Shown: piece by piece, positions 1-29,137 of the stretch
Position numbering within the stretch: the first letter of the stretch is position 1
Layout: every line of letters begins with the position of its first letter
Source of the DNA: Chthonomonadaceae bacterium
Lineage (GTDB): Bacteria; Armatimonadota; Chthonomonadetes; Chthonomonadales; Chthonomonadaceae
Length of the DNA: 44,056 nucleotides
NCBI GenBank assembly: GCA_035650735.1
Contig: DASRGZ010000056.1
Span: 62,001 to 106,056, forward strand
Direction: 5' to 3'
Translations under genes and position numbers: made by a program
The notes under the pieces: model-generated
The model's database searches: none
What the model was told of the DNA's origin: nothing
Seen by the model: the letters and a program-made list of their open reading frames with translations, nothing else

Positions 1-3000
1 TCGCCCCAGGCCACCCGATAGGTCAGGTCGCCGGAATCCACCGACTGCCCGTTCTGGTCCGCCGCGTACTGGATATGGATGACGTTGCCCTCATCCTGCT
101 CCGTGAAGTAGATGCGGCCCCGCACCCAATCCACTTCATACGGCCCGATGGGGCGTCCAAGCTGCGCGTCCGGCTGGATGGTGAACTGTGGAATCACCGG
201 ATTGCCGTTGTTGTCCTTGCCCAGGTGGAACGGACGCGGCAGGCGCACCAGGAGCCGCATCGCCTTGTAGTAGATGGCGGAGGGCACGGTGCCGTTCGGG
301 TCGCTCTTGCGATAGAGCGTCCAGAAGCGATCCACCGGCGGATTGCCGACCGTCACCGGTGGCGCGCTCAGCTGCGTGCGCGGATTGAACCCGCGATCCA
401 GGATGGCGATTGGGTTCTGGTTGTCGCCGGGCGCGGTCGTCGCCGGACGCGGGCGGAAGGCCGGGTCGTTGAAGGCGAAATTGCCGTAGCCGCGCGTCCT
501 TATGATGTTTGTCTCGTCGCGGGTCGCGTTCAGCCGCATCACCTGCGGGATGTAGCTGGCGAGCACGATATCGTTGCGTCCCGGCGGCACGTTCGGGAAG
601 CTGACCGTGCCGGAGCGGCTATCCACGACGATCTGGCCGCCGAGCTTGGAGTTGTAGTAGACCAGGCCGGAAGCCTGATCGAACCGGCCAAGCTGGGGCC
701 GGTTATCGGGCCGCAGGTTCAGATCGATCCGCTGTGCCGGGTCGCCGTTCTTGAGCAGAGTCAGCACGACCGTGCCCTGTTGATAGTCCAGATACCAGGC
801 CGCATCGCGCGCTGCCCAGGTCGTAGTGGAACCCACGCGGGTCAATGTCTCTTCCTCTACCGCCGGCAACTGCATCACATACAGCCCACCGACCGGCAGA
901 TCCTCCGGGTGATTCGGGCGCGGCGGCGTCCGGTTGATGCCGTAGCGCGTCAGCAGCACCTCGACGGTCTGGCGGTTCTTGAGCACGCCCGTGTAGACGA
1001 TGTCAATGGCGTCTACCTGGATGAACTGGCCGCTGGTCGGATCGCGCACGACGACGCGGCGGTAGACCGGGTACGGGTCACTCTGCCACACCAGCGCGCC
1101 GGGCGTGGGCAGTTTAGTATCCTGGCTCCAGCCGGTAGGCGCAAAGGCGCTGTTGACATCGGCAGCGACGTTGACGTTATAGTAAAGGGTCGTCTGCGAC
1201 TGGTTGCCGGCGTGCCAGAAGAGATAGAGCATCTTCTGCGCCGAGGCGCCGTTGGCGGCATCCAGCTTGACCAATAGCGGCTTGGGACTCAGCTTGGTCA
1301 GCGCCGGATCGTTCAGGAACGATAGGATCGGGCCGGTCGGCGTCCCGGTAGCATCCAGAGCCGTCCAGAAGGTGCGCGAGTCCTGCTGCTCTCGCTGCTG
1401 GCTGCGCGCCTTATCTACATTGCCCTGGAAGAACAGGTACGCCTCTGGGTCTTGCGTGCCGTCGGAATGGACGGCGACGGCTACCTGCGGGCTGGCATAC
1501 CGGACCGTCTGCGGGATGGGATTTCCCGGCAGATAGGGAACGCCGTTATTCGTCGGGGCCGACGGGAATAGGTCCGCTAGGTTCGCGGGTTGGCCGTTGT
1601 TATAGCCCGGGAAGAGGGTCGTCGGCGACCACCACTGCGCCTGGTTGAGGGCTCCGGGCACGGCGAACCGGTAATCCAGGAAGGAGAAGCCGTTGCCGAC
1701 CGTGTTCACCAGGCCGGGCAGGCGGCTGAAGGCCAGGCTCCAGGGTGCCTCGGGCAGGATGGCCCCCGTATTCGGATCCCGGTTGGTCGCCCAGAAGAGA
1801 CTGATGTTGGGTGCGTTCGGGTCCGGATTCCGGTAGGCCGTCGGCAGCAGATCGGCGCTCAGCGGCAGCGTGCCGAGCGGGTCCACCTCACCCAGAGTAC
1901 CTTTGGTGACGCCGCCGGTCAGGCGGGCCTCCCGCACCCGCACCTTCAGCGTGAACGTCGGGTCGGCGTAGGCTTCCACCGGGAAGCCGGTGTTCGGGTC
2001 CACGTTGAGAATGGCGTCGTTATCGGCGCCCAGCGCGGCATTCGATTGCGTGCTGGAGAGCCATTCGCGCCACTGGATCGGCAGGTTGTCCTCATAGACA
2101 AAGATCGGGTTGGCGTAGGTGCCGACGGGCGTACCCAAGGGAACGGCGACGCCAACCTGCGGCTGCCGGAACTGGAACCCCGCAATCTCCTGGGTGTCAT
2201 GGGACTTATCGGGCACGGTGGCAACGGTGCCCTGGGCATCTCCGACACGGGCCTTATGTAAGGTCGGCCACGGCTGGGTGCCATCGGTCCAGCCTATATT
2301 GTTGAGAGGGCCGAAGAGCGGGCCGAAGGCGGCCTGGATGCCGGCTGCCGTGACCTCCGGGTTGGGCAACGGCCAGAGCGGACGCTCCGGGAAGTTATTG
2401 CCGGAGTTCCGGCTCAGATGGTCGAACGAGGACACGATGCCGAAGTTGCCTTCCGCGCCGGTGTTGCCGTTCGTGCCGTAGGGCATGGCGAAGAGGCCGC
2501 CGGTGAGCAAGTTATCCACCTGGTCGCTGACCAGCCGCGCCGACGAGGCGAAATTCGCAGGAGGGAGATAGGACAGCGATTGCGGGCCCACAGCCGCCCC
2601 CGGTATGCCGCGCAGCTTTGACAGGCGCAGATGCCAGAGGTTGACGTTGCCCTCGTTGATCACGGTGATGGGCCGGAAGAAGTTACCCAACTGATTATCG
2701 TCGTTCCAGGGCGAATTGCCGTTGGGATAGTCGCTGGAACCGGTCGGCGCGAAGGGTATACGCGGACTGCCATTGGCAAGGATGTCGCTGTAGCCGGTGC
2801 CGTGCGGCACTTTGCCCAGGTCCACCGTCTCTTCCGCCACGCGCAGCTTGATGTTGGGCGGGACGGTCAGGCCGACATCCACGGCGCGATACGCCTCCTG
2901 CACCGGAGATAGGCCGATCTCGCGGGCATCGTTGAAGGCAAGCTCCGGTCGGAAGCGGGCGATGCCCTGGCCGAGTTGGCCGTTGTTGGCCGGCTCCGCC

Positions 3001-6000
3001 AGCACGATCACTTCCGAGATATAGCCGGCTGCCGGGAAGGCCAGCGCCCCGCCCGTCACCGGCGTGCCCGACGTGACCTGCATCGGCCCCAGAATGGAGT
3101 CTCCGTTCTCTCCCCGGATCGCGCCGCTGATGTCCGTGTAGGCCGATCCGAAGTTGTATGTGTTCTGGTTCTGCGGGTCTACCCATTTGATGGCGCCGCG
3201 GTTGACGTTGGCCGGCTGGAAGCGCGGCACGCTCACGCTCATATCCACCGGCGTCGGCTGCGGCGTGCGCAGCGTCGGGTCGCCGCTGGTGTCCTGTATA
3301 GGCGGCTTCAGCGCCACGCTCGACTGCTGCAAGTCCTGGTTATTGATCTTGATGCTGAGCGCATCGGGCGGCATTCCAGGATAGTCGGGCGTGGTCTGGC
3401 CGTTGTCGGGCATCTGATCCCAGGGCAGCGGATTCATAACCGAGGACGGCCCGCCGTACCAGGTGAACCCGTTGGTCAGCACGCGCACGGTCAGCGCCTT
3501 GCCCGTCTTGGCGGCCAGGTTACTGCGATCCATGACGAAGAAGGCAGGCACCTTATTGCCATTGTTATCTATCCCCATGTAGCTGCCTGAACTGCCATCG
3601 GGGATCATGCCGACGGGCGCGAAGAGGGCCTTGATCGCCTGAGCCGCGCCGGTGCTTGCGTTGGTAATGCGGTTGCCGTTGCCCAGCAGTTCACTGGTAT
3701 CGTTGATCTGGGTCACGTCCGGCGCCCAGCCGATGACGTTGGGCTGGCCGGTCATATTGGTGCCGCTGTAGTTACGTATCGTCAGCGCCAGCGGATGGGC
3801 GATGAAGACGCGCCGCTGCTGGCCGCGGAACTGGTTGGGCGTGAGCGGAGTCTGCGAGCTGAGGCCCGCGTAGTCGCGCTGGCCGAGCCGTATGATGTTG
3901 GACTCACGCCGGATGGTGGCTCCTATCCCGTTAGCCTGCCCCTGGATGCCGCTCTGCGAGATGATCGCCCGCGCCGTAATCCGGTATCCGGTCGAGCCCG
4001 GCGCGTAGGGCGTATTGATGTCCGGTATGATCGGGATGCGCACTTTGGCGACCCAGGGATAGGTGCCGTTTGCCCTGCCGGTAAAGAGCTGCTGCTGGCC
4101 GGAGTTGGGGTCGAGCGCATAGATCGAGACATCCTGATCCACCGCCGTATCGTCGGGCATCGGGCCGATAGGCCCCGGCTGATCCACGGGCGGCACCGTC
4201 ACGCTGAACGTGCGGGAGGGATGGCCCGGCTGCGTGATGGTAAAGATCGCGGTGACGTTGGGCACCGAGGGCGGCGGGCCGCTATCGTTGGTGTTCTGCG
4301 CATGGTAGACGCCGTAGGCCGCGACATAGAGATCGGTGCCCCAATCCGTAGCGACGCCGTTGGCGCCGACATTGGAAGGCATCGGATCGGCTGTCCTGCT
4401 ATAGCGAGCGCCGTTGGCATCATAGGCGGGTGTTTCCCGGAGATTAAAGTTCGGGTCGCCAGGCACCAGCATGAAGCGATCCCAATCCCCCGGCTTGTAG
4501 AGGTCGAGGCCACGAATGTCAATGGTGACGAAGCCGACGCCGTTGGCGAGCTCCTCCGGCTCGCCCGGCCCCACCGTTTCCAGGCCGGGGCCGTAAGCGC
4601 GGAACTGCCCGCCCTCATCGCCTTCGACAATGGTGCCGTTAGCGAGAATGGGCGGCGCGGGCCGCGAGGCGGCCGTCTCGTTGTGCTCCCAGAGGACTTC
4701 CAGGAAGTTCGCTGGTGAAACCCCATCCGGCGAGATCGGGTCGGCGTTGATCGCCCAGATCGCCCCGTCGTCATCGCCGAAGACGACCGCCGGATGGCTC
4801 GTCGGGTCCAATCCGCTCTGCCCGGTCAGCACGGCCAGCGTCGGCGTGGATCGGGTGCTGCCGGCCGTCAGCGTGCCGCCGGAGGCCACCAGGGTTGTCT
4901 TGGTGCCGCCGCTGCCCGCCGCATTGAGGGCCAGCACGGTGCCGTCGCCCTGCAGCACGTAGCACAGGTCGGGCAGCGTGCCGTCGGGCCGGATGGTCGT
5001 GCCATCTACCAGGATGGGCGCGGTGCCGTTGAAGCCCGGATCGAGCGCTATGGTGGTATCGTTCGGGTCGCCCGAATTGGGATTGGGCGGGTTGGGCGAC
5101 GGGAAGGGCACGTTATCGGTGAAGGGATAGACCCAGGACAGGGTATTGGTCACCGGAAGGGTGCCGCCGGGCGGCGTCTCGTTGACGGCATAGACACGGC
5201 CGCCGCTGGTAAAGTAGACGCGCCCCTTGTAGATGGCCGCCGTGCTGGGCGATTGGCCCAGGCTGATGCCCGGACCGGGATACTGCCAGTTCAGGCGCTC
5301 GTCGAAGACGGGACGGCCGTTGACGATGGCCCGGAAACGGTCATGGGCGGGATTGACGGCGTAGAGGTGCCCGTCCACTGACCCGATGATGATCGGGCTG
5401 CTGGCCCCGTTGAAGTTGGGGTTCTGGGCCGGCGAGGCCGCGAAGGCGCCTTTGGCCTGGACATCGGGCGGAACAGAAGCGGTCGGATTATTCAGGTAGC
5501 GCCAGGCGTCCGCGCCCAACTGCGGCCAGGTCCAGATGCGCTGGGTCGTGCCGGAGACGTTCTTAGTCGGGTCGGGATCGAAGTCGCCGCGCCCGCCAGC
5601 GTCGAAGGCGTAGACGCGCCCGTTCAGACAGCCGACGACCACAAGCTGCGCGCCGTTAGGATTGTTGGGGTCATTGACGACCGTGGGCGCGGACTGGACG
5701 CCGGCGAAAGCCGGTATCTGCGTATCGCTGCGCACGACAAGCTGGCCCGCCGTCGGGCTTTGAACCAGGTCCCCGTCAAAGTGGATGACATCGTTGAGGG
5801 GCACGGTATCCTGCCCGAAGGTCGGCTGTGGGTAGGTTCCCCGTACAAAACCGGTATAGTTCGGGTCGTGGTACTGGGCCGGGACGTTCTGAGGATCGCG
5901 TACCACCAGCGGGCGAATGGACGGGTAGGCCCAGTAGGCGGTGGTCACCTTGTTGTTCGGGTCGCCGTTGGGATCGAGGGCGTAGAGATGGCCGAGCGAG

Positions 6001-7481
6001 CCGGCGGCGTTGGTGGTCGCAAAGTAGAGAATGGGACGCACCACTCCGTCACGGCAGCGCACGTTGGCCAGAAGCGGCGAGGCGCTGCTGGTGCCGGTGC
6101 CATCGGAGGCGCCTACATAGCGCCAGCGTACTCGATCCGTGGACGAAATTACGTTGCCGTTGGCGTCCGCGCCGGGGCGGTTGTCCAGGCAATAGAAGAC
6201 CGGCGCGGTGGTCTGCGCGGTTGGGTCGGGCGCGGAGTCGTCCGGTCCCTGCGTCGGATCGGCGGCGGAGCGCAGCGTCGTGTCGGGAACGCCCTCCTCA
6301 CGGGCGAAGAAGAAGAAGGGCTGTCCGCCGAGCTTGGTGCCGACGGCAGGACCGAGGATGCGCCCGCCGCTGAAGCCGGTGACGCCGTTCGTGACGCCGT
6401 TCAGGGCAAACTGCGGGACAAAGCGCACGGCATCGGCGGTGATGATCGGCGGGTTCTGATAGACCGTGTTATTGGCGTCGGGCGTGACCGTATAGAGCGT
6501 GACGGTCAGCGGATGGGCGGGATTGCCGTCGTAGGGGAAGACCGCTGGGCCGAGACCGCCGTTCTCGCCTGCGATATGAATCCAGCCCTGCTGGCTCAAG
6601 TCCACCATGAAGATGCGGCTGGTGGTCGGATCGTTGATGCCGGCGAAATTCAGGTTGCCGTTGCCATCGGTCGTGTTGCCCCAGCTAACGCGCACGAAGG
6701 CGTGGATGGCGTTGGGATGCACTAAGCCATCCGTGCCGGTAGTTCCGTCGCCAGGGGAGAAAATATCCACGCTGTAGTAGCCGGGCGAGATCGCTCCCTG
6801 CTGGTTGCCGTTATTGGGGAAGCGCAGGGTGCCGGAAGTCCACACGGCGCTCGGCTGTCCGCCGTTCACGCCCTGGATCAGCGTATTGTGAACCGCCCGA
6901 TAGACATTGGCAGGCGCGTTCGGCAGCCTGTTCAGCTCGTCTATGGTGGCCTTGCTGGTGGTGCCATTGCCGCGCGCTACCAGGAAGTCCTGCTGCGCCG
7001 CCAGGACATAGCCGTAATCGAAGGAGGTCGGGTCGTTGGGATCGGTAGAGAAGGAGAAGCCACGGCCCGGCGCGCGGTTGGCCGGGGCCGGAATGGTCCA
7101 GGAGCCAAAGTTGGGCAGAAAGGCGGCGATGGCGTCCGGAGGCTGCGGCGTGCCGGTCTGAGCCGGGCGATTCGGGTTCGGGTTATCCACCACGGACGTC
7201 AGCGGAATTTCGATGGTGCGCGGGAAGACCCACTTCCGATTGCCCGCGCCGACATTGTTGCCGGCATCGGTGAAGCCGTTGTAGCCGAGGCGTATCGGGA
7301 GCGGATTCGAGTTGTTCGGCCCGAAGCCCGGCACGGTGCCGCCGCGATCCAGAAGCCAGTCAAGGCTATCAAAAGGCAGGGGCGCCTGTGCCTGTACCTG
7401 CCCAGCAAGAACCGCCAGGAGCAGCGCCGCCAGGGCGCACCATCCCATCTTCATTGTTAAGAGCGCACTCCGGTGCCTCAT
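1..7481 (-). CDS. Giant Sec-secreted protein (>2493 aa, 3' end beyond window) with a Golvesin/Xly CBD-like domain and a PQQ-like beta-propeller; candidate PilY1-like pilus adhesin
   Basis: Translated by hand. ATG at 7481 follows AGAAGGA. Signal peptide MRHRSALLTMKMGWCALAALLLAVLAGQVQA. I found no stop codon down to base 1 (...DLTYRVAWG). Repeated blades VVVGCLNGRVYAFDA, IIIGSVDGHLYAVNP, VYFTSGGRVYAVNE, VVFGDDDGAIWAINA; ADAVRFV motif. Not in the supplied ORF track. Confidence 0.85.
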   Translation of the reverse strand, partial: MRHRSALLTMKMGWCALAALLLAVLAGQVQAQAPLPFDSLDWLLDRGGTVPGFGPNNSNPLPIRLGYNGFTDAGNNVGAGNRKWVFPRTIEIPLTSVVDNPNPNRPAQTGTPQPPDAIAAFLPNFGSWTIPAPANRAPGRGFSFSTDPNDPTSFDYGYVLAAQQDFLVARGNGTTSKATIDELNRLPNAPANVYRAVHNTLIQGVNGGQPSAVWTSGTLRFPNNGNQQGAISPGYYSVDIFSPGDGTTGTDGLVHPNAIHAFVRVSWGNTTDGNGNLNFAGINDPTTSRIFMVDLSQQGWIHIAGENGGLGPAVFPYDGNPAHPLTVTLYTVTPDANNTVYQNPPIITADAVRFVPQFALNGVTNGVTGFSGGRILGPAVGTKLGGQPFFFFAREEGVPDTTLRSAADPTQGPDDSAPDPTAQTTAPVFYCLDNRPGADANGNVISSTDRVRWRYVGASDGTGTSSASPLLANVRCRDGVVRPILYFATTNAAGSLGHLYALDPNGDPNNKVTTAYWAYPSIRPLVVRDPQNVPAQYHDPNYTGFVRGTYPQPTFGQDTVPLNDVIHFDGDLVQSPTAGQLVVRSDTQIPAFAGVQSAPTVVNDPNNPNGAQLVVVGCLNGRVYAFDAGGRGDFDPDPTKNVSGTTQRIWTWPQLGADAWRYLNNPTASVPPDVQAKGAFAASPAQNPNFNGASSPIIIGSVDGHLYAVNPAHDRFRAIVNGRPVFDERLNWQYPGPGISLGQSPSTAAIYKGRVYFTSGGRVYAVNETPPGGTLPVTNTLSWVYPFTDNVPFPSPNPPNPNSGDPNDTTIALDPGFNGTAPILVDGTTIRPDGTLPDLCYVLQGDGTVLALNAAGSGGTKTTLVASGGTLTAGSTRSTPTLAVLTGQSGLDPTSHPAVVFGDDDGAIWAINADPISPDGVSPANFLEVLWEHNETAASRPAPPILANGTIVEGDEGGQFRAYGPGLETVGPGEPEELANGVGFVTIDIRGLDLYKPGDWDRFMLVPGDPNFNLRETPAYDANGARYSRTADPMPSNVGANGVATDWGTDLYVAAYGVYHAQNTNDSGPPPSVPNVTAIFTITQPGHPSRTFSVTVPPVDQPGPIGPMPDDTAVDQDVSIYALDPNSGQQQLFTGRANGTYPWVAKVRIPIIPDINTPYAPGSTGYRITARAIISQSGIQGQANGIGATIRRESNIIRLGQRDYAGLSSQTPLTPNQFRGQQRRVFIAHPLALTIRNYSGTNMTGQPNVIGWAPDVTQINDTSELLGNGNRITNASTGAAQAIKALFAPVGMIPDGSSGSYMGIDNNGNKVPAFFVMDRSNLAAKTGKALTVRVLTNGFTWYGGPSSVMNPLPWDQMPDNGQTTPDYPGMPPDALSIKINNQDLQQSSVALKPPIQDTSGDPTLRTPQPTPVDMSVSVPRFQPANVNRGAIKWVDPQNQNTYNFGSAYTDISGAIRGENGDSILGPMQVTSGTPVTGGALAFPAAGYISEVIVLAEPANNGQLGQGIARFRPELAFNDAREIGLSPVQEAYRAVDVGLTVPPNIKLRVAEETVDLGKVPHGTGYSDILANGSPRIPFAPTGSSDYPNGNSPWNDDNQLGNFFRPITVINEGNVNLWHLRLSKLRGIPGAAVGPQSLSYLPPANFASSARLVSDQVDNLLTGGLFAMPYGTNGNTGAEGNFGIVSSFDHLSRNSGNNFPERPLWPLPNPEVTAAGIQAAFGPLFGPLNNIGWTDGTQPWPTLHKARVGDAQGTVATVPDKSHDTQEIAGFQFRQPQVGVAVPLGTPVGTYANPIFVYEDNLPIQWREWLSSTQSNAALGADNDAILNVDPNTGFPVEAYADPTFTLKVRVREARLTGGVTKGTLGEVDPLGTLPLSADLLPTAYRNPDPNAPNISLFWATNRDPNTGAILPEAPWSLAFSRLPGLVNTVGNGFSFLDYRFAVPGALNQAQWWSPTTLFPGYNNGQPANLADLFPSAPTNNGVPYLPGNPIPQTVRYASPQVAVAVHSDGTQDPEAYLFFQGNVDKARSQQREQQDSRTFWTALDATGTPTGPILSFLNDPALTKLSPKPLLVKLDAANGASAQKMLYLFWHAGNQSQTTLYYNVNVAADVNSAFAPTGWSQDTKLPTPGALVWQSDPYPVYRRVVVRDPTSGQFIQVDAIDIVYTGVLKNRQTVEVLLTRYGINRTPPRPNHPEDLPVGGLYVMQLPAVEEETLTRVGSTTTWAARDAAWYLDYQQGTVVLTLLKNGDPAQRIDLNLRPDNRPQLGRFDQASGLVYYNSKLGGQIVVDSRSGTVSFPNVPPGRNDIVLASYIPQVMRLNATRDETNIIRTRGYGNFAFNDPAFRPRPATTAPGDNQNPIAILDRGFNPRTQLSAPPVTVGNPPVDRFWTLYRKSDPNGTVPSAIYYKAMRLLVRLPRPFHLGKDNNGNPVIPQFTIQPDAQLGRPIGPYEVDWVRGRIYFTEQDEGNVIHIQYAADQNGQSVDSGDLTYRVAWG

Positions 7482-7579
7482 ACAAGATATCCTTCTATCT
7501 AGGAACACTGCCATTGTGTGTTGCGTGCGCAGATTCTCAACCCTGACCTCACCCCTATTTCTGGGGTTATGAGCTACCT

Positions 7580-7778
7580 AGAGTGTGTACGGAACCCCGG
7601 CAGTTGCCCGGCCCTAAAGGACCGGGCTGTGGGCGGCAAGCCCCCGGAAGGGGGCTAACCTTCCCTCTGGTAGCCTCGGAAGGGGGCTAACCGACCTCTC
7701 GTAGCCCCATTGATGGGGCTTGCCGTCCGCAGCCCACTCGTTTACGGGTGGGCTGCCAGAAGCTATCGTATACACTCT
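7580..7778. mobile_element. MITE-like element with 12-bp terminal inverted repeats and internal REP-like hairpins
   Basis: AGAGTGTGTACG (7580-7591) vs CGTATACACTCT (7767-7778), 1 mismatch. Internal palindromes GCCCGG..CCGGGC, GGCAAGCCCC..GGGGCTTGCC, AGCCCAC..GTGGGCT; direct repeat CGGAAGGGGGCTAACC twice. No ORF. Confidence 0.55.
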
Positions 7779-12727: not shown

Positions 12728-12735
12728 TTACGTGA

Positions 12736-20917: not shown

Positions 20918-21102
20918 GCTAGGCGGAGGCAGGGGCCCTAACCCTGCCGCCCCTAGCAGTAGCAACAAGAGCGCAAAGTCGCCCTCCGGCGACTCCATCC
21001 TTCCCTCTCCCGTGCTGCGGGAGAGGGGCTGGGGGTGAGGGCAGTCCCCGTAGGGGGACTTCGTGCCCTGGTTGCCGCGAATTTATTCGCCCGCAACCTG
21101 AA
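20918..21102. repeat. Dispersed repeat module plus REP-like palindromes
   Basis: AGGCGGAGGCAGGGGCCCTAACCCTGCCGCCCCTAGCAGT matches 12950-12990; CCCTCTCCCGTGCTGCGGGAGAGGGGCTGGGGGTGAGGGC is an inverted match to 12814-12853. Confidence 0.7.
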
Positions 21103-21220: not shown

Positions 21221-22138
21221 CTAGGGCTGAAAGTATAGCGGGAGCGTATAGGGATCGCCGTGCGCTTTCATATAGTTGACCTTACGCGCGGTGCCGGAGA
21301 GCAACAGCACGAGCACATTCGGGCTGCCCGAGGTGGCCGCGTGGTCGGTAACGTAGGTAATCACGGTGCGCTCTGCGGGCGGATTGCGATACTTCAACTG
21401 AGTCACGACGGCCCTGCCTTTATCGTCTACATCGCAGGTTGCGCCCAGCTTATGGGTCCAATCCGGCGTATAGTGCAGCTCGTAGATGGTGTTCCCGCGA
21501 TCATCTTTAACCGGATGCCCATAATCATCCAGGCGCGGCCCGATGTCCATGCTGTCCATCGTATAGAACAGCTTGGGCTTGCCCACATAGGTATCATCGG
21601 GAAGGTCAGGATCGCCATAACTGGGGCAGGTCGGATTGGTGGTCGTATCGGTCTTGCTCCAGACGACAAGCTGCCCGGCCAGGTCCTTGTTCGGCAGATT
21701 GAGCGGATAGTAGACCTGGGTAACCGCCTTCTTGTCCGTCACCAGATTATCCGTACAGGTGAAGTTGCCGTAATCCTTGAGGTGCTCGCGATACAGGTAG
21801 CCCTTGAGGATTTCATTCATCGGCGTGATGTTGGCCGGATTATTGTTGACATCATCCTGGGTAGCGAACCGGGCCGGCCCGGTCGGCGTGTCCTTAATTT
21901 CCGCATAGCCGAAGAGGGCCGGCGGGAAGCGGCCTTCATCGTCGTAGAACTGGCGCGCGGCGATATAGATAGAGTGCAGGTTGCTCATGGTATTACTCTG
22001 GCGGGCCTGCTCGCGCACCGTTCCGAAGATCGGGAAAAGAATGGCTGCGAGTATCGCGATAATGGCGATGACGGTGAGCAGCTCGATCATAGTGAACGCT
22101 CGCCGGGCGCACCTGCGCGCTGAGTGCCGTGTTTGCAT
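21221..22138 (-). CDS. Type IV prepilin-like protein (~305 aa), DUF1559/GspG-like N-terminus
   Basis: [27 protein letters not shown]...REQARQSNTMSNL; GGAG RBS before ATG 22138; paralog of the adjacent gene. Confidence 0.85.
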   Translation of the reverse strand: MQTRHSARRCARRAFTMIELLTVIAIIAILAAILFPIFGTVREQARQSNTMSNLHSIYIAARQFYDDEGRFPPALFGYAEIKDTPTGPARFATQDDVNNNPANITPMNEILKGYLYREHLKDYGNFTCTDNLVTDKKAVTQVYYPLNLPNKDLAGQLVVWSKTDTTTNPTCPSYGDPDLPDDTYVGKPKLFYTMDSMDIGPRLDDYGHPVKDDRGNTIYELHYTPDWTHKLGATCDVDDKGRAVVTQLKYRNPPAERTVITYVTDHAATSGSPNVLVLLLSGTARKVNYMKAHGDPYTLPLYFQP

Positions 22139-22221
22139 ACGTATCTCCATTTGCAGACGGTTCTGCTGCCGGCAGAACCGAAGTCCCCGGCCTCTTTACC
22201 GGCCAGGGCTGGCAAACTCTC

Positions 22222-23019
22222 TTAAAACTTAAAGTTCAGCGGTCCCTGAGTTAGGAAGCGATCCGTCGGGACTGCCTTGACCGTTCCCGAAAGCAGGATG
22301 ACCGGGATTACATTGGAATGGGCCGTCTTAACGTGGTAGGTGCACCAGGTGACCACCGTGCGGTCGTCGGGCGGATTGGGATATTTGAGCTGGTTTTGCG
22401 GATCGTCCTGGCCGACAACGCCGGTCCAATCCAGGCTATAGTGGAGCTCCATGATCTGGCTACCGCCCTGGGTCACGGGGTTGCCGTCCTTATCCACCTG
22501 CGGCCCGACGTCATAGCTATCAAATACGTAAAAGTAGGGCGTCTGAGTTGCCAGCGCATCCTGGCCGAGATTGTGCGCGACGGTCTGGGTAAAGGTGACT
22601 GGGCCGGTCAGCGGCACGCCAGCCGGATAGACGACGGCAGCGGTCGTCTTAGCATCGTTCACGCCATTATCGGGACAGTTAAAGATGCCCCTATCCCGCA
22701 GGTACTTCTGGCCCGTCATGAGCGGCCGATAGGTCAGTTGATCGGCAGGAAGCGGTTGGCCGCTGCCGGTATAGTAGCTGCCGTCCGCGTTTTGAGCCAA
22801 TCCGAACAGCGCCGCCGGGTATTTGTTGTTATCCAGTTGATAGAGCTTGAGCGCGCGCCAGATGTCGTGCATCTGAGACATGCACTGGCTCTGACGGCGC
22901 TGCTCGGCGACGCGCGCGAACGTCGGAAAGATAAGGGCGGCGAGAATCGCGATAATGGCAATGACGGTAAGCAGTTCGATCAAGGTAAAGGCTTTGCGCG
23001 TCGTTGTCGAGTACGGCAT
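22222..23019 (-). CDS. Type IV prepilin-like protein (265 aa), DUF1559/GspG-like N-terminus; candidate major pilin
   Basis: [27 protein letters not shown]...QCMSQM; RBS GGAG; has its own candidate promoter at 23134-23160. Confidence 0.85.
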   Translation of the reverse strand: MPYSTTTRKAFTLIELLTVIAIIAILAALIFPTFARVAEQRRQSQCMSQMHDIWRALKLYQLDNNKYPAALFGLAQNADGSYYTGSGQPLPADQLTYRPLMTGQKYLRDRGIFNCPDNGVNDAKTTAAVVYPAGVPLTGPVTFTQTVAHNLGQDALATQTPYFYVFDSYDVGPQVDKDGNPVTQGGSQIMELHYSLDWTGVVGQDDPQNQLKYPNPPDDRTVVTWCTYHVKTAHSNVIPVILLSGTVKAVPTDRFLTQGPLNFKF

Positions 23020-23133
23020 GCTACCAACTCCGTCCTTCTTTGGAGCTGCGGGAAAGCGCCCGCCTCCTGGCCTGTGTGTACAGTCTCATAAAGCAAACGC
23101 AAACCAAATCCTGAGCGATCATTCCGAATGTTT

Positions 23134-23160
23134 GACGATAGGTATTCAGGCAATGTTCCG
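23134..23160 (-). promoter_or_regulatory. Candidate ECF sigma promoter GGAAC-N17-CGTC upstream of the pilin pair
   Basis: Minus strand reads cGGAACattgcctgaatacctatCGTCaaa. Confidence 0.6.
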
Positions 23161-23163
23161 GTT

Positions 23164-23229
23164 GCGGCAGGGTTCAGCCTGCCGCGTCAGGGTTTAGCCT
23201 GCCGCGTCAGGGCCGATCCTGGCAGTGGG
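23164..23229. repeat. 20-bp tandem duplication within a degenerate copy of the dispersed repeat
   Basis: GGTTCAGCCTGCCGCGTCAG / GGTTTAGCCTGCCGCGTCAG, then CCGATCCTGGCAGTGG as in 12976-12991. Confidence 0.6.
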
Positions 23230-23250
23230 ATCAAGGGGTAGGAGCCTCTC

Positions 23251-24318
23251 CTATCCCTCCAGTGGCTGCGGCCTGGGGAGCGCGTAGGCCAGGTACCAGG
23301 CCGTCAGCGGCTCGCCGATAAAGACGGTCGCCAGAAATCCGATGACCATAAACGGCCCGAAGGGAATAGCCGTAGGAGCGGGCTGCCAGTTATCCTCCTG
23401 CGGCTCTGGGGCCTGGCCGCGCCGCCCACGCAGCAGATCGCGCACGTAATCAACCAGATCGCCCAGGACAAGGCAGTACCCGACGGCAAGCACCTCCCAT
23501 GTTAGCGACGAGTTTTCCTCTTCCTCAGGTTCGTCCTCCCTGTCTAATACGGGTTCTGGCACGGCCTGGAGTTTCGCAGCCTGGGCGCGGCGAATCAAAA
23601 TCAGCGCCGGGCCGACGATCACGCCGGAGAAGCAGGCCAGCAGCACCCAGATCGGAAAGAGGCGCAGTGGATGGAAGGCGGCAGGCGTCACCGAAATCAG
23701 CATCGCGCCCATCGCGCGGGCCAGCAGCACATCGCCCAGGCCCATCGCCTCCACCCGTTTCCATAGCCAACCCAGTATGCGCACCACGCCGAAGATCAGC
23801 ACGCCGACGACCGCTCCCAGAATAGAGCGCGGCAGCCAGCCCCAGACAAGTTCGTGCCCCGGCTCGTGCTGGGCGATGCCCCACACATCGCGGCCCACGG
23901 CGACCCCGAAGGCCAGCAGGTTGAGCGAATCCGGTATATGAAACGTGGCCAGGTCAATAAAAAAGACCGGGATGAGTACGGCTGTAAAGAGCAGCAGGGC
24001 GACACAGTTAGCGGCATCCTGCGGATAGCGCAGGTAGAGGGCGACAAACAGCAGTCCCGTCAGAAGCTCAATGGCAAAGTAGCGCCAGGAGATCGGCTGT
24101 TTACAGGAGCGGCACCGCTGCCCCAGGATAAGAAAGCTGAACAGCGGCACCAGATCGATCGCCGTCAGCCGCCGCTTACAGTTCGGACAGAACGACCAGG
24201 CCGGATCGTTCACGGAGATGCCCTGCGGTAAACGCCAGATGACTACGTTCAGGAAGCTGCCAATAGTGATGCCGAAAACGAACGTCACCAGGCACCAGAA
24301 CCAGGCGGGAGCGATCAT
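23251..24318 (-). CDS. pilD: Prepilin peptidase / N-methyltransferase (A24A)
   Basis: GSFLNVVIWRLP, CPNC and CRSC zinc motifs, IDLATFHIPD, MGLGD, IPFGPF. Confidence 0.93.
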   Translation of the reverse strand: MIAPAWFWCLVTFVFGITIGSFLNVVIWRLPQGISVNDPAWSFCPNCKRRLTAIDLVPLFSFLILGQRCRSCKQPISWRYFAIELLTGLLFVALYLRYPQDAANCVALLLFTAVLIPVFFIDLATFHIPDSLNLLAFGVAVGRDVWGIAQHEPGHELVWGWLPRSILGAVVGVLIFGVVRILGWLWKRVEAMGLGDVLLARAMGAMLISVTPAAFHPLRLFPIWVLLACFSGVIVGPALILIRRAQAAKLQAVPEPVLDREDEPEEEENSSLTWEVLAVGYCLVLGDLVDYVRDLLRGRRGQAPEPQEDNWQPAPTAIPFGPFMVIGFLATVFIGEPLTAWYLAYALPRPQPLEG

Positions 24319-24393
24319 AAGCGAGTTACGAAGCGTGCGGATGGGAGGCCGGCGCCACAGGCGCTAGCCTCCCAGGTAGACTCGGATTGATGG

Positions 24394-25644
24394 CTACTCG
24401 CCTTTGCCGCCGCCCTGCTGCTCGTCCTGGCCGCCAGAGAGGTTCTGAATGACCTGGATCAGCGGCATGAACATCGCGATGACGATGAAGCCGACGCAGA
24501 CGCCGAGGAAGACGATCATGACCGGCTCGATGGCCGAGGTCAGCGACTGGAGCGTGGACTCCACTTCACCCTCATAGAATTCGGCGATCTTGGAAAGCAT
24601 CTGGTCCAGAGCACCGGATTCCTCCCCGATGGAGATCATATGCACGACCATCGGCGGGAACATGCGGCTCTTCTCCAACGGGTCGTTGATGCGGTCTCCC
24701 TCGCGGATGCGGGCGCGAGCGTTCATGACGGCTTCACTGATGATCTCGTTGCCCACGGTGCCGGCCACTGTCTCCATCGCCTGTAGGATGGGCACGCCAG
24801 AAACCAGCAGGGTCGAGAGCGTGCGCGAGAAGCGAGCCAGGCAGATCTTATGGCTGAGCTTGCCGAAGACCGGAACCTTGAGCTTGACCCGGTCAATGAC
24901 GCGCCGCCCCACCTTAGTCGTGCCGAAGTACTTGATGGACATCCAGAGGACGGCCACGATCAGCAGCCCCATCCACCATCGCTCTTTGAGAAAGTCGCTG
25001 AAGTCCACCAGAATCTGCGTCATCGTGGGCAGGTCTTTGACGCCCAGATCCTTGAACAGCTCGATGAACTTGGGCACGATAAAGGTGCACAGCCCCAGCA
25101 CGATCAGGATCGCGACGACGACGACGATAGCCGGGTAGGTCAGAGCGGCCTTGACCTTGCGGCGCAGCTCCATGTCCTTTTCCAGGAAGTGGGACAGGCG
25201 CTGTAGGGCCTCTTCCAGCACACCACCGACTTCCCCGGCGCGGATCAGACCGATGAACAGGTTATTGAAGACCTTCGGGTACTTCTGCATGGCCCGCGAG
25301 AGGGTCTGGCCGCTCTCGACTTCGGTCTGGATGTCCCGGATGATGCGCTTGAGCTTGGGGTTGGTGGTCTGCTCGCCCAGCACGTCCAGCGCGCGCACCA
25401 GCGAGACGCCCGCATCGATCATGGTGGAGAACTGGCGGCAGAAGATCGCCAGGTCGTTGAGCTTGACGCGGCCCCAGCCGCCTCCCGCCGACCGCTTGGC
25501 GCCGGCGGCAGTCTGCTTGACGTCGTTGACCTGGAAGCCCTGCTCCTGCAGCCGCCGCTTCAGGATCTCCTGGTTTTCGGCCTCTGAGGTTCCCGTCCGT
25601 ATGGCGCCGGTCGAGTCGCGGACCGTATATTGATACACTGGCAT
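24394..25644 (-). CDS. pilC: Type IV pilus inner-membrane platform protein (T2SS F family)
   Basis: FCRQFSTMIDAGVSLVRAL, AGEVGGVLEEAL, IGEESGALDQML, IEPVMIV. Confidence 0.95.
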   Translation of the reverse strand: MPVYQYTVRDSTGAIRTGTSEAENQEILKRRLQEQGFQVNDVKQTAAGAKRSAGGGWGRVKLNDLAIFCRQFSTMIDAGVSLVRALDVLGEQTTNPKLKRIIRDIQTEVESGQTLSRAMQKYPKVFNNLFIGLIRAGEVGGVLEEALQRLSHFLEKDMELRRKVKAALTYPAIVVVVAILIVLGLCTFIVPKFIELFKDLGVKDLPTMTQILVDFSDFLKERWWMGLLIVAVLWMSIKYFGTTKVGRRVIDRVKLKVPVFGKLSHKICLARFSRTLSTLLVSGVPILQAMETVAGTVGNEIISEAVMNARARIREGDRINDPLEKSRMFPPMVVHMISIGEESGALDQMLSKIAEFYEGEVESTLQSLTSAIEPVMIVFLGVCVGFIVIAMFMPLIQVIQNLSGGQDEQQGGGKGE

Positions 25645-25694
25645 GGCTTGCTCTCCGTTTTTTCAAACCGCCCCCCTTCGTAAGGGGCCGAGGC

Positions 25695-26987
25695 TTACGG
25701 GCGTCCTCCGTAGCCGGCGGGGCCGGGCGTGGCGGTGACGGCCGTCTTGATCATCTTCTCCAGTTCCTGCGGGTTCATGGCGCGCGTCATGGCCTCCTCG
25801 AAGGAGATGACGCCGCGCACGTAGAGATCGCGCAGGCTCTGGTCCATTGTCTGCATGCCGATGTTGGCGCTCGTCTGGATCATAGAGGTGATCTGATGCG
25901 CCTTGTTTTCGCGGATCAGGTTGCGGATGGCCGGGCTGGCCCGCATGATTTCCATGGCGCAGACGCGACCGGGCTGGTTGGCGCGCGGAATCAGCTGCTG
26001 GCAGAGGATGGCTTGCAGGTTATTGGAAAGCTGCAGGCGCACCTGCTCCTGCTGGCCGGGCGGGAAGGAGTCCACGATGCGCTCGACGGAGGTCGCCGCC
26101 GAGTTGGTGTGCAGCGTGGCGAAGACCAGGTGGCCGGTTTCGGCTGCGGAGACGGCCATCTGCATGGTTTCCAGGTCGCGCATTTCGCCGACGAGGATGA
26201 CATCCGGGTCTTCGCGCAGGGCGGCGCGCAGCGCGTTTTTGAACTGCTTGGTATCTTGCCCTACCTCGCGCTGGTTGATCACGCAGAGCCGGTGCGTATG
26301 CAGATACTCGATGGGGTCTTCGATGGTGATAATGTGCTTGTTCGCCTCGCTGTTGATTTGGTTGATCATGGCCGCCAGGCTGGTAGACTTACCCGAACCG
26401 GTCGGCCCGGTCACCAGGATGAGGCCGCGCGGCAGGCGCGTCAGCTCTTCCAGAACGGGCGGCAGTCCCAGCTCCTTGATGGTGGGAATGCGCTGTGGGA
26501 TCTGGCGGAAGGCGGTGGCGACGTTGCCCTTGTCGCGGAAAACGTTGACGCGGAAGCGGGCCACGCGCGCCAACTGATAGGAGAAGTCCAGCTCCAGCTC
26601 GGTTTCAAAGCGCTGGATCTGCTCATCGGTGAGAATGTCGTAGATAAGCCGCTGCGAGTCCTGGGCGGTCACTTTCTCGTATGGCAGGGGAACGAGCGTG
26701 CCATCCAGGCGGATGATAGGCGGAATGCCGACGGCGAGATGCAGGTCGGAGGCGCCTTTCTCGTGCGTGCTGCGGAGCAGATCGTCAATGTGGGCGTCAT
26801 CAATCGGCTGCGGGCGCGCGCTGGCGACGGCAGGCTGGGCCGGCGCGGTCGGCGGCGCCATCGGGTTGCCTGCGGCCTGCTGGGGAGCCTGCCCATAGGC
26901 TGGGGCCTGCTGCCCGTAGGCTCCGGGCTGTTGCCCGTAAGCCTGCTGAGTCGGCCGGCCATAGTTGGGAGGTTGACTATCAGACAA
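25695..26987 (-). CDS. pilT: Type IV pilus retraction ATPase (~430 aa) with a Q/Y/G/P-rich N-terminal extension
   Basis: Walker A GPTGSGKS, TIEDPIE, LREDPDVILVGEMRD, GHLVFATLH, AIRNLIRE; TTG start at 26987 after GGAG. Confidence 0.95.
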   Translation of the reverse strand: MSDSQPPNYGRPTQQAYGQQPGAYGQQAPAYGQAPQQAAGNPMAPPTAPAQPAVASARPQPIDDAHIDDLLRSTHEKGASDLHLAVGIPPIIRLDGTLVPLPYEKVTAQDSQRLIYDILTDEQIQRFETELELDFSYQLARVARFRVNVFRDKGNVATAFRQIPQRIPTIKELGLPPVLEELTRLPRGLILVTGPTGSGKSTSLAAMINQINSEANKHIITIEDPIEYLHTHRLCVINQREVGQDTKQFKNALRAALREDPDVILVGEMRDLETMQMAVSAAETGHLVFATLHTNSAATSVERIVDSFPPGQQEQVRLQLSNNLQAILCQQLIPRANQPGRVCAMEIMRASPAIRNLIRENKAHQITSMIQTSANIGMQTMDQSLRDLYVRGVISFEEAMTRAMNPQELEKMIKTAVTATPGPAGYGGRP

Positions 26988-27084
26988 GGTACTTTCTCCA
27001 ATCAAGGGGTATGCCGCCCTCTCCTTTTGCCGTCTGCTACGTGCCTGGAAAAGGAGGCGCGGCGCATGTGCTAATAGTATGCCT

Positions 27085-27093
27085 ATTGTACCA
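27085..27093 (-). promoter_or_regulatory. Possible extended -10 element (TGG-TACAAT) for pilT
   Basis: TATGGTACAATAG about 100 nt upstream of pilT; the same 13-mer occurs at 37050-37062 upstream of the dehydratase gene. Confidence 0.35.
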
Positions 27094-27282
27094 TAGTTTT
27101 GCCAGGATGCCCGACCAACTTTACACCTGCACGCCTGGCCGCTTCCTCTTGCCGGGCCAAAGGCATCCTGAACCTGGTGGCACGCATCTACGGCTCCGGA
27201 TAAGAGCAACGTACAGCCGCAACAGCGCCAAAGACAAAGCTGCCTTGCTCAGCGTCGAGCAAGGACGAACAAACCCTCCGAC

Positions 27283-27321
27283 ACCCCTTCCCTTGGCAGG
27301 GAAGGGGGCCGAGGGGTTAGA
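27283..27321. repeat. REP-like half element directly after the pilB stop
   Basis: ACCCCTTCCCTTGGCAGGGAAGGGGGCCGAGGGGTTAG matches the right ends at 12917-13041 and 30811-30847. Confidence 0.7.
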
Positions 27322-27322
27322 T

Positions 27323-29137
27323 TTAGAAGCCGGCGGTGAAGACGACGCGCATGACTTCGTCGGGCGTGGTGACGCCCTGGAGGACTTTAACCAGGCCGTC
27401 CTCGCGCAGCTCATGCATACCGTTGGCTTTCGCCGCTTCTTTAATATCGGAGAGCGGAGATCGGCGAACCACCATCTCGGCGATTTCCGCGTTCATGCGC
27501 AGCAGCTCGTAGAAGCCGATGCGGCCCTTATAGCCGGTATGGCGGCAGGCCTCGCAGCCACGGCCGCGCGCTATCTGCACCTTCTGCTCCGGGTCTTCCG
27601 GCTTGAAGCCGAAGCGGCGCAGGTAGTTGGCCTCGACCTCGTAGTACTCCTTGCATTCGGTACAGATTTTGCGTCCCAGGCGTTGGGCCAGAATGCCGAT
27701 GACGGTCGCCGAGACAAGGAACGGCTCGATGCCCATATCAATCATACGAATGGTGGCCGAGGGCGCATCATTGGTATGGAGCGTGGAGAGGACCAGGTGG
27801 CCGGTAAGAGAGGATTCAACGGCGATTTCCGCCGTTTCCAGGTCGCGCATCTCTCCGACCATGATGATGTCCGGGTCCTGGCGGAGGAAGGAGCGCAGGG
27901 CGGTGGCGAAGGTCAGGCCCGCCTTCTTGTTGACCTGCACCTGCGTGATACCGCTCAACTGGTACTCGCACGGGTCCTCGATGGTCAGAATGTTCTTCTC
28001 AATGGTGTTGAGCTTGTTGAGCAGCGAGTACTGCGTCGTGGTCTTGCCGGAACCGGTCGGGCCGGTGGAGAGCAGCATGCCGTTAGGCTGCATAGCCAGC
28101 TCCTCAAGCTGAGCCTGCACTTCATCCGTGAAGCCCAGCTTGTTCAGGCCGATCATGACGCTGCTCTTGTCCAGGATGCGCATGACGACCTTCTCGCCAT
28201 GCAGGTTGGGCAGGCAGGAGACGCGCAGGTCGTAGTCCTTGCCGCCGACGCGGATACCGATGCGTCCGTCCTGGGGCAGGCGGCGCTCCGCGATGTTCAT
28301 CTCCGCCATGATCTTGTAGCGGGCGATCAGCGGCGCCTGGATGTACTTGGGCGTCGTCATCGTCTCATGCAGAACGCCGTCAATACGGTAGCGGATGCGC
28401 ACGTTGCGCCGGTCGGGCTCGATGTGGATGTCGGAGGCGCGCTCCTGGACGGCGCGCTGGATGATGGCGTTGGCAAGCCGCACAATGGGCGCCTCTTCGG
28501 CCACTTTGGCCGCCGACTCATCATCATCCTCGATCTTGGCGGCTTCACCCCGCGCGCCATATTCGGCCATCGCCTGGGCCATGGCGGACTTGGTATCCGC
28601 ATCCACCACCTCGCCGCCACCGGTTCCGGAAGCGCGCAGCGGGTTCATGCCGGGCTTGGCGGCCCCGACGGCGCCTGCCGCCTCCGGTGCGCCCACCGGC
28701 GCCACCGAGGAGCCGTAATAGCGGCCGATGGCTTCCTCGATCTGATCGGGCACACCCAGCACGGCGCGCACCTGGCAGCGCGACACCAGCCGCAGGTCGT
28801 CGGCGGCGGTCAGGTTGTTGGTGTCGGCCATCGCCACGTAGAGCGTGTTGCCGTCCTTTTTGACCGGCAGGACGTTATGGCGCTTGGCGATATGCTCAGG
28901 GACGACGTTAATGGCGCTCTGCTCTGGCTTAAACTTGCTCAGATCGACAAACGGAACTGCCATCTCCTGCGCCTTGGCCTCATAGACATCGCGTGCCGGG
29001 AGGCCCATTTCGATTAGAATTTTGGCCAGGTCGCTGCGCGAGCTCTGCTGGGCCTTGCGGGCCTCCGCGAGCTGTTCCGGAGAGATGTAGCCCTTCTCCA
29101 GCATGTAGTCGGCCATACTTTTACGAGCCATTACCAT
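27323..29137 (-). CDS. pilB: Type IV pilus assembly ATPase (GspE/PilB family)
   Basis: ASDIHIEP, ERRLPQDGRI, GPTGSGKT, LRQDPDIIMVGEMRD, CTEC/CEAC zinc motif; degenerate MshEN-like N-terminus. Confidence 0.96.
   Translation of the reverse strand: MVMARKSMADYMLEKGYISPEQLAEARKAQQSSRSDLAKILIEMGLPARDVYEAKAQEMAVPFVDLSKFKPEQSAINVVPEHIAKRHNVLPVKKDGNTLYVAMADTNNLTAADDLRLVSRCQVRAVLGVPDQIEEAIGRYYGSSVAPVGAPEAAGAVGAAKPGMNPLRASGTGGGEVVDADTKSAMAQAMAEYGARGEAAKIEDDDESAAKVAEEAPIVRLANAIIQRAVQERASDIHIEPDRRNVRIRYRIDGVLHETMTTPKYIQAPLIARYKIMAEMNIAERRLPQDGRIGIRVGGKDYDLRVSCLPNLHGEKVVMRILDKSSVMIGLNKLGFTDEVQAQLEELAMQPNGMLLSTGPTGSGKTTTQYSLLNKLNTIEKNILTIEDPCEYQLSGITQVQVNKKAGLTFATALRSFLRQDPDIIMVGEMRDLETAEIAVESSLTGHLVLSTLHTNDAPSATIRMIDMGIEPFLVSATVIGILAQRLGRKICTECKEYYEVEANYLRRFGFKPEDPEQKVQIARGRGCEACRHTGYKGRIGFYELLRMNAEIAEMVVRRSPLSDIKEAAKANGMHELREDGLVKVLQGVTTPDEVMRVVFTAGF

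Follow-up and report, generated by a model that had tools for sequence, protein, structure and literature searches.

The 44,056-nucleotide (nt) stretch of DNA from Chthonomonadaceae bacterium considered here, called the window throughout (contig DASRGZ010000056.1 of assembly GCA_035650735.1, contig positions 62001-106056, the right end coinciding with the contig end), carries a type IV pilus operon in which the assembly genes and two pilins are followed by three giant minor pilins, V, W, and X, and by two still larger, apparently secreted proteins, big1 and big2. Eleven open reading frames (ORFs), all on the minus strand, encode pilB, pilT, pilC, pilD, two pilins, V, W, X, big1, and big2, each where an earlier note on this DNA had placed it in a co-oriented run (Table 1), and the summed length of the last five is 6694 amino acids (aa). 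By analogy with characterized tip complexes, the favored reading, held at somewhat better than even chance, is that V, W, and X serve as the priming and capping complex of a retractile type IV pilus and that big1 and big2 sit on or beside its tip as glycan-binding adhesins. Because the operon holds the only prepilin peptidase of the genome and is conserved across the phylum, it is probably the main pilus of Armatimonadota, a widespread and poorly studied group.

The operon encodes several of the components by which a type IVa machine is recognized: a PilB-type ATPase, a PilT-type ATPase, PilC, PilD, and pilins with an N-methylation motif. The matches to PF00482, PF06750, PF01478, and PF07963 all exceed their cut-offs, PilB matches T2SSE (PF00437, E 2e-135) and MshEN (PF05157, E 1e-21) in Pfam, and PilT scores 505.8 bits on TIGR01420 (pilT_fam, cut-off 319.1) over residues 141-482 of its 504-aa ORF. 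The type IV pilus with a retraction ATPase that the earlier note had recognized is thus borne out by the Pfam and NCBIfam matches of the core. Against two further NCBIfam profiles the scores are lower, with PilB slightly below the equivalog cut-off of TIGR02538 (634 bits, cut-off 675.65) and PilC at 458 bits, under the 700-bit cut-off of NF052607. PilD has one tblastn match in the whole genome and is the sole copy found.

The giant minor pilins

Both V and W match N_methyl (PF07963), and Glu5 is retained in all of the orthologs compared, 11 of 11 for V and 11 of 11 for W. The family signals in these proteins are limited to the first ~60 residues. For V, these are PilV (TIGR02523, E 2e-5) and GspI (TIGR01707, 22 bits with a cut-off of 44); for W, they are Verru_Chthon C (28.4 bits, cut-off 256.5) and HpsC (29 bits, cut-off 200; E 1e-6). 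The other 590-680 residues have no further Pfam family in any of the 11 orthologs of each protein, and profiles of V and W compared to PDB sequences matched the pilin helix alone.

X opens with the residues R-G-Q-T-L-I-V-A. In the alignment of X sequences (A1), position -1 is Gly in 63 of 65 and position +1 is Gln in 65 of 65, while position +5 is V, I, L, or M, with Glu in none of 67 sequences. A missing Glu5 is treated, in the sections of PMC13759059 drawn on here, as the mark of the terminal GspK/PilX-type subunit, and X therefore bears that mark. Scans of the X, big1, and big2 of the window against Pfam and NCBIfam gave nothing at E up to 0.01, and at E up to 10 gave only chance-level Dockerin/EF-hand and NHL matches. 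Among 43 X relatives there are weak N-terminal matches to GspK (5 of 43, 13-14 bits with a cut-off of 130) and to Verru_Chthon A (2 of 43), spanning profile positions 1-60 only.

The structure of X was predicted with AlphaFold2 from a 68-sequence alignment, with a predicted local distance difference test score (pLDDT) of 89.2 and a predicted template modeling score (pTM) of 0.89. The model has a 57-residue helix (20-76), a four-stranded sheet (113-180), and about 850 mostly beta residues after these. Foldseek, run with the whole model against the PDB, returned no match at E up to 1e-3 and only weak rows resembling carbohydrate-binding modules (CBMs). When the fold was compared with 48,161 chains by VIA-align, the model (range 179-1067) aligned with ComZ (6qvi_A) at Z 11.1, with a root-mean-square deviation (rmsd) of 4.0 over 268 residues, and with four DUF3494 ice-binding proteins at Z 10.8-11.2; the rows below these are at Z 8.4 or lower. 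Residues 611-808 resemble CBM35/36/6-type sandwiches at Z about 8, the tapirin C-terminal domain 6n2b aligns at Z 6.9, and GspK (3ci0_K) aligns at Z 6.8 over 98 residues in the range 49..1074, with strands returning at 1032-1071. The model thus combines two features of the beta-solenoid PilX/ComZ class, an N-terminal pilin helix without Glu5 and a large solenoid of the ice-binding-protein type. The span of the GspK alignment and the returning strands bear on a third feature, a solenoid placed between the penultimate and final strands of a GspK-like pilin fold. On this model X is a structural member of the class formed by ComZ and cyanobacterial PilX/HpsA. It is not a member by sequence, because the HpsA profile (NF038301) found nothing in the genome at E up to 1, with a positive Synechococcus control, and the X profile A1 found none of the PDB sequences at E up to 1. 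Similarly, X and 42 relatives have no HpsA match in NCBIfam.

A loop resembling those of EF-hands and dockerins, DxNGDGKV, is present at residues 307-314 of W (window ~17699-17722) and at residues 279-286 of X (window ~15429-15452). In both proteins it is found in close relatives alone, 3 of 11 for W and 8 of 68 for X. PilY1 is known to use a calcium site, and any relation of these loops to it would be conjecture.

The giant proteins with signal-peptide-like N-termini

By eye, the N-terminus of big1 has a basic stretch, a hydrophobic stretch, and the sequence IRA/DA, and that of big2 has the same arrangement ending in VQA/QA; neither has a pilin motif. The Sec secretion that the earlier note gave for both proteins is based on these readings. 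Signal-peptide-like N-termini were likewise seen by eye in 10 of 10 big1 orthologs and in 8 of 10 big2 orthologs, the starts of the other two big2 proteins being mis-assigned. The earlier note had described pilin N-termini with very large extra domains on V, W, and X, which stands, and had put big2 at >2493 aa, a figure that now becomes 2583 aa in full. The gene runs 238 nt beyond window position 1, and the protein has 2572 aa if it begins at the second Met.

Among big1 orthologs, DUF4159 matches 23 of 28 (5 above cut-off), NHL matches 10 of 28 (4 above cut-off), and PQQ_2 matches 2 of 28, with none of these three families matching the big1 of the window. Clusters of PQQ/BamB, ThuA, and YVTN type were returned for big1 by the ESM Atlas at a score of 0.85, which is taken as a lead only. 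The most conserved part of the protein is the N-terminal ~500 residues, and the C-terminal end has a conserved LEQPTF..RPF motif (alignment A4).

The predicted parts of big2 are an N-terminal half with Golvesin_C-like and PQQ-like propeller regions and a C-terminal ~700 residues with a six-bladed propeller of the sialidase fold. In BLAST, the C-terminal half alone aligns with distant syntenic orthologs. Precomputed Pfam matches among 88 big2 relatives include PQQ_2 in 23 and Golvesin_C in 21, and a direct scan of distant orthologs found a PQQ-type propeller at ~600-900 in 9 of 9 and Golvesin_C at ~300-480 in 8 of 9. The same direct scan gave no match in 4 of 4 members from the order to which the window belongs, Golvesin_C (PF25275) was not found in the big2 of the window, and the ESM Atlas gave nothing usable for this protein. 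Residues 1384-2583, modeled with AlphaFold2 (pLDDT 82.2, pTM 0.81), are all beta. Foldseek returned 249 matches to this model at E up to 1e-3; sialidases and enzymes of glycoside hydrolase (GH) families GH43 and GH32 head the list, with E down to 5e-7. By VIA-align, Neu2 (1snt) aligns with model range 414-1195 over 319 of 352 residues at Z 16.3 and an rmsd of 3.5; many other sialidases are at Z 14-16 and TolB is at Z 14.9. The modeled region thus has the six-bladed propeller fold of sialidases (GH33). The propeller proteins of the earlier note are therefore supported in part: no Pfam or NCBIfam match was obtained with the window's own big1 and big2, and the propeller assignment is supported by matches in orthologs and by the predicted C-terminal structure of big2.

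In alignment A6, R1013, R1037, R1177, E1123, and E1155 of the modeled fragment are invariant across 33 sequences. This Arg/Glu set sits in the sialidase-fold propeller, at big2 residues 2396-2560 (window ~70-330 and beyond), and might form a catalytic or sugar-binding pocket; the active site of sialidases (GH33) is marked by a catalytic Arg triad, a Tyr/Glu nucleophile pair, and Asp-boxes.

Conservation in Armatimonadota

The phylum was surveyed in a sample of 401 genomes, of which 300 are of high quality. X was found in 362 of the 401 (284 of the 300), big1 in 277 (227), and the C-terminal 1200 residues of big2 in 216 (182). Synteny was examined in 10 relatives, drawn from 9 families, over 40 kb surrounding big1. 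The order pilin-V-W-X-big1-big2 is colinear on a single strand in 10 of 10, and pilB-pilT-pilC-pilD lies directly upstream in 8 of 10; of the remaining two, one has pilD alone and one has none of these genes within the fetched DNA. The junctions from V to big2 are mostly of 30 nt or less or overlapping, with starts that are approximate and with the two big2 starts mentioned above mis-assigned. In the genome of the window, V, W, X, big1, and big2 are each single-copy. In family f26, big1 and big2 queries matched 0 of 15 genomes. A genome of this family (G133) carries pilB-T-C-D, two pilins, V, W, and X in that order and lacks big1 and big2 downstream, which indicates that neither protein is needed for the core. 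The synteny of the five large genes with pilBTCD in relatives, on which the earlier note had staked its reading, thus holds in 8 of 10 relatives for the whole set and in G133 for V-W-X.

Proteins of 1280-1410 residues with an X-like N-terminus occur in another context in family f6. Two are 4 kb apart on the same strand in one genome (G084:C3:872829-877399), and others lie outside any pilBTCD operon (G046:C1:2763258 and 2947039). They appear to be further giant variants of the GspK/PilX type in the phylum. Together with G133 and family f26, they indicate that the giant V-W-X core occurs more widely than big1 and big2 do. A genome of the same family as the window (G145) has two full X-big1-big2 blocks, at G145:C4:146318-163407 and G145:C1:521526-538103.

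When a profile of 68 X sequences was searched exhaustively, it matched 831 representative clusters at E up to 1e-3 and 487 at E up to 1e-30. The 80 X loci kept are all Armatimonadota by title or without a phylum name, except one labeled Sedimentisphaerales (L134). Similarly, one big2 relative (P0303) is labeled Chloroherpetonaceae and the other named relatives are Armatimonadota. Both exceptional labels likely reflect mis-binning or mislabeling, although the weak tail of the 831 clusters may include distant relatives from other phyla. In the source databases, the V, W, X, big1, and big2 families are annotated as hypothetical proteins.

The core machine and organization of the locus

Table 1. 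Genes and other features of the pilus operon, in window coordinates.
Feature	Position	Strand	Description
PilB-type assembly ATPase	27323..29137	-	604 aa; N-terminal MshEN domain
PilT-type retraction ATPase	25695..27005 from likely start; ORF to 27209	-	504-aa ORF
PilC platform protein	24394..25644	-	416 aa; T2SSF PF00482 twice, E 2e-72
PilD prepilin peptidase	23251..24318	-	355 aa; A24_N_bact PF06750 E 7e-31, Peptidase_A24 PF01478 E 9e-9
Pilin 1	22222..23019	-	265 aa; K-A/FTLIELL prepilin motif; PF07963, TIGR02532
Pilin 2, paralog of pilin 1	21221..22150	-	309 aa; N_methyl PF07963
Hairpins in the gap between pilin 2 and V	20974..21027		Terminator-like stem-loop 20997-20974 (minus strand) and REP-like palindrome 21003-21027
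V, PilV/GspI-like giant minor pilin	18666..20612	-	648 aa from ATG; G/FTLLE, Glu5; ~590 globular residues
W, PilW/GspJ-like giant minor pilin	16430..18640	-	736 aa; G/FTLLE motif, Glu5
X, PilX/GspK-type cap pilin without Glu5	13050..16286	-	1078 aa; predicted ComZ/ice-binding-protein-like beta-solenoid, CBM35/36-like sandwich ~611-808
big1	7778..12727	-	1649 aa; signal-peptide-like N-terminus, DUF4159-like ~40-350, PQQ-like propeller by motif, NHL-type C-terminal propeller
big2	1..7514 in window (ORF 3-7514)	-	2583 aa; last 79 codons outside window

The start of PilT is most likely the TTG at 27005, which is preceded by a AAAGGAGAGG box. From this start the protein has an N-terminal extension of ~65 residues rich in P, Q, G, and Y (window 26810-27005), followed by the conserved motif SARPxP(L/I)DDAH(I/V)DDLL. 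In most of 8 relatives examined, this motif likewise comes after a proline-rich extension, of 30-100 residues. PilB residues 60-144 (window 28706-28960) and 10-46 hold the MshEN domain and a sub-threshold match to the MshE-type motif that binds cyclic di-GMP (30 bits, cut-off 38). The domain and the motif match hint at cyclic di-GMP control of pilus extension.

Pilin 1 is the candidate major pilin. The two pilins are 40% identical, and a single pilin is found at this position in 8 of 10 syntenic relatives. The gap between pilin 2 and V holds the hairpins listed in Table 1, of which the palindrome, resembling repetitive extragenic palindromic (REP) elements, consists of CCCTCTCCC, a short loop, and GGGAGAGGG, with CCTTCTCCC as a variant; there are 239 copies in the 6.5-Mb genome. 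Downstream of big2, the next gene, read on the contig past the window, is an unrelated oxidoreductase of the flavin adenine dinucleotide (FAD) type, and the cluster therefore ends at big2.

Additional pilus-type genes are present elsewhere in the genome. On other contigs there are 6 secretins and several PilM_2/PilM-type ORFs, and the genome also has about 8 extra PilB/GspE-like ORFs and several PilT and PilC paralogs. Secretin-, PilM-, PilB-, and PilC-like sets, some of them clustered, are on contigs C131, C21, C40, C117, C218, C55, C139, and C28; for example, the cluster on C131 has pilM at 1014, a secretin at 5587, pilB at 6306, and pilC at 8088.

Comparison with known systems

ComZ from Thermus thermophilus has a GspK-like pilin core and an ice-binding-protein-like solenoid, has been shown to bind PilA2 and DNA, and has been argued on steric grounds to have a tip position, as reported in the portions of PMC6561018 used here. 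It is similar to X in its pilin-type N-terminal helix, GspK-like core, and large triangular beta-solenoid of the ice-binding-protein type. However, X is about twice as long (1078 residues, compared to 518 in the chain of PDB 6qvi), has a CBM35/36-like sandwich and further C-terminal parts that ComZ lacks, shows no sequence similarity to it, and is encoded in a V-W-X-big1-big2 operon directly behind pilBTCD. Cyanobacterial PilX homologs all carry a solenoid that has been proposed to replace the PilY1 cap, and their PilX-EPS/HpsA subfamily has an elongated solenoid and extra grafted domains, according to the sections of PMC13759059 (2026) considered, a paper that nowhere mentions Armatimonadota. 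The FimT-PilW-PilV-PilX sets described there resemble the present operon in having a Glu5-less PilX with a bulky solenoid alongside PilV and PilW, no PilY1, and a proposed sugar-related adhesin role. In contrast, V and W here have 650-740 residues, there is no evident FimT-like gene between the pilins and V, and X is followed by two giant secreted proteins, of which those same sections make no mention.

In the PilV-PilW-PilX-PilY1 complexes of Proteobacteria and Myxococcus, minor pilins are likewise followed by a large Sec-exported propeller protein, and the expected roles are priming, capping, and adhesion. The operon in the window instead has two large proteins, with propellers of the NHL, PQQ, and sialidase types and no PF05567. 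Minor pilins of Pseudomonas have roughly 180-280 residues, and those described here are 3-5 times larger. The Verru_Chthon cassette A-D (TIGR02600, TIGR02598, TIGR02599, TIGR02596) also combines prepilin-type proteins with one very large protein that has a GspK-like N-terminus, but none of its four cut-offs is reached. Apart from the W match to C given above, W and the pilins score 18-23 bits on D (cut-off 70), X relatives score up to 14.5 on A (cut-off 332), and B has no match. The cut-offs for the pseudopilins of type II secretion systems (T2SS; TIGR01707 for GspI, NF037980 for GspK) are not reached by V or by X relatives either. Large binding modules at or fused to type IV pilus genes are known from the tapirins of Caldicellulosiruptor (bioRxiv 10.1101/359786) and from PilB of Streptococcus sanguinis (bioRxiv 10.1101/2021.01.27.428410). 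However, tapirins, which are not pilins, match the fold of X only weakly, and in S. sanguinis the modules are reported to be von Willebrand factor A (vWA) or lectin domains.

These comparisons bear on the remaining claims of the earlier note. Its view that the link to Verru_Chthon is one of analogy, homology not being shown, agrees with matches that are confined to the first ~60 residues and far under the cut-offs, and profile searches of Pfam, NCBIfam, and the PDB upheld its expectation that none of the five large proteins would match a characterized family along its full length. Its description of the system as undescribed needs qualifying because X shares its architecture with ComZ and cyanobacterial PilX/HpsA, and the idea of a solenoid-capped PilX is already in print for two other phyla (2019, 2026). 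The module itself was not found described in literature on type IV pili and pilins of Armatimonadota/Armatimonadetes or on DUF4159 with a pilus. For example, in the part of the Fimbriimonas genome paper used (PMC4072686), the only such genes named are pilB, C, D, Q, M, and pilT and many PulG-like ones, and fimbriae are reported as observed in Fimbriimonas ginsengisoli. Novelty lies in the size of V and W, in the domains added to X, and most of all in the pair of conserved, apparently secreted giants. The PilX-type tip with a solenoid cap is thereby extended from Thermus and cyanobacteria to a third phylum and takes an extreme form, in which each of the three minor pilins is a giant and a further pair of giants with sugar-type folds is attached to the operon.

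Proposed mechanism and alternatives

The proposed mechanism is modeled on GspI-J-K, PilV-W-X-PilY1, ComZ-PilA2, and the cyanobacterial FimT-PilW-PilV-PilX sets. PilD would cleave V and W, and possibly X. X would enter first and, since it lacks the Glu5 through which a subunit above would be contacted, remain at the apex, and V and W would connect X to a fiber of pilin 1 and/or pilin 2. The fiber would be extended by PilB and retracted by PilT through a secretin whose gene lies elsewhere in the genome. Sec would export big1 and big2, and both might then bind to the V-W-X complex while in the periplasm, in the place that PilY1 has in Proteobacteria, where their sugar-binding-type folds would lend the tip affinity for polysaccharide surfaces. 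In gene position, big1 corresponds to proteobacterial PilY1 and big2 is next to it. The CBM-like, Golvesin_C-like, propeller, and sialidase-type folds would be compatible with glycan binding. The strict synteny, the single copies, and the one conserved end with a variable rest in each of big1 and big2 agree with accessory proteins of the tip that combine docking and binding parts.

Several observations weigh against this reading. In the core, pilMNOPQ is not within the operon, and with several PilB/PilC/PilM sets and 6 secretins in the genome its partner set is ambiguous. The names V and W derive from the first ~60 residues and from gene order, the globular parts being unmatched, and the Gln at +1 of X is unusual in a substrate of prepilin peptidase. 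That big1 and big2 attach to the pilus, so as to be displayed as the two adhesin-like proteins of the earlier note, is suggested by synteny alone, and the operon of G133 lacks both. At E up to 10, hmmscan finds no PilY1 (PF05567) in either big1 or big2, and PilY1 is not among the best 50 fold rows for the C-terminal model of big2; a genome-wide search for PF05567 also found none, but this has little weight since its controls were silent too. A tip of ~6,700 residues would also have to pass through a secretin. The listed sequencing runs that carry the stretch are 7 DNA and 0 RNA.

The main rival accepts that V-W-X primes and caps a pilus but takes big1 and big2 to be co-transcribed glycan-binding or glycan-cleaving proteins, exported to the medium, the surface, or the periplasm, and not parts of the pilus; in its variants they are exported by the same secretin in the manner of a T2SS or are merely co-regulated with adhesion. 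It is thought unlikely, with a weight well short of even. Sec-type N-termini without a pilin motif and the folds of secreted glycosidases and lectins (sialidase, GH43/GH32, PQQ/NHL propellers, Golvesin_C) are what it would predict, and it accommodates the missing pair in G133, the lower frequency of big1 (277) and big2 (216) compared to X (362) in the 401 genomes, and the lack of a PilY1 match. However, behind X both genes keep a strict order and strand in all of the 10 relatives (9 families), with junctions that often overlap or span less than 30 nt, which would be unusual for mere substrates, each protein is single-copy, and conservation peaks at the N-terminus of big1 and the C-terminus of big2, as expected of docking domains joined to variable binding parts. 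If the opposite extreme is considered, in which big1 and big2 are exported on the V-W-X tip, then a retractile pilus would present domains of propeller, lectin-like, and glycosidase-like types totaling ~4,200 residues, with which it would capture and perhaps cut polysaccharide. This stronger form is doubtful; if true, such a pilus-borne capture device would be an undescribed type IV pilus cargo conserved through most of a phylum. If the proteins sit on the tip at all, it must be asked how a complex of this size gets through a secretin, and they would provide a model for pilus-mediated polysaccharide capture.

Two other readings change the role of the whole operon. The module could form a short pseudopilus that serves to secrete polysaccharide or to drive slime-based motility, like that of the Nostoc hps genes (HpsA-D), with sugar domains that handle the exopolysaccharide of the cell itself. 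The N-terminal match of W to HpsC (E 1e-6), N-termini resembling GspI, GspJ, and GspK, and an X built, like cyanobacterial PilX-EPS/HpsA in the pages of PMC13759059 referred to, from an expanded solenoid with extra domains are all consistent with this. The reading is nonetheless improbable: EPS_HpsA (NF038301) finds nothing in the genome under the controlled search described above, the flanks of the operon (aroE, mltG, ruvX, and a desaturase-like gene) hold no glycosyltransferase genes, and the operon itself includes a PilT retraction ATPase. Competence is the other reading, with X as a ComZ-type DNA receptor at the tip and DNA uptake as the main role of the operon. While ComZ is the best single structural relative of X (Z 11.1), binds DNA, and is needed for transformation (PMC6561018, in the portions used), the likeness is at the level of the fold alone, with no PDB sequence found by profile A1 at E up to 1. 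The CBM-like sandwich in X and the sugar-type folds in big1 and big2 point elsewhere, and a locus with the only PilD of the genome that is also the conserved pilus locus of the phylum argues for a general pilus, so that competence as the main role is very improbable.

Other features of the window

The remainder of the window (29.2-44 kb) has housekeeping genes, including aroE, mltG, ruvX, and ilvD, and an extracytoplasmic function (ECF) sigma factor. Scans of the window for Rfam families and transfer RNAs gave no match, and a promoter and terminator scan gave a result not above that of shuffled sequences. A plus-strand ORF at 35202-35627 opens with a prepilin-type N-terminus. Such N-termini are highly multiplied in the genome, with >20 tblastn matches when a pilin N-terminus is used as the query.

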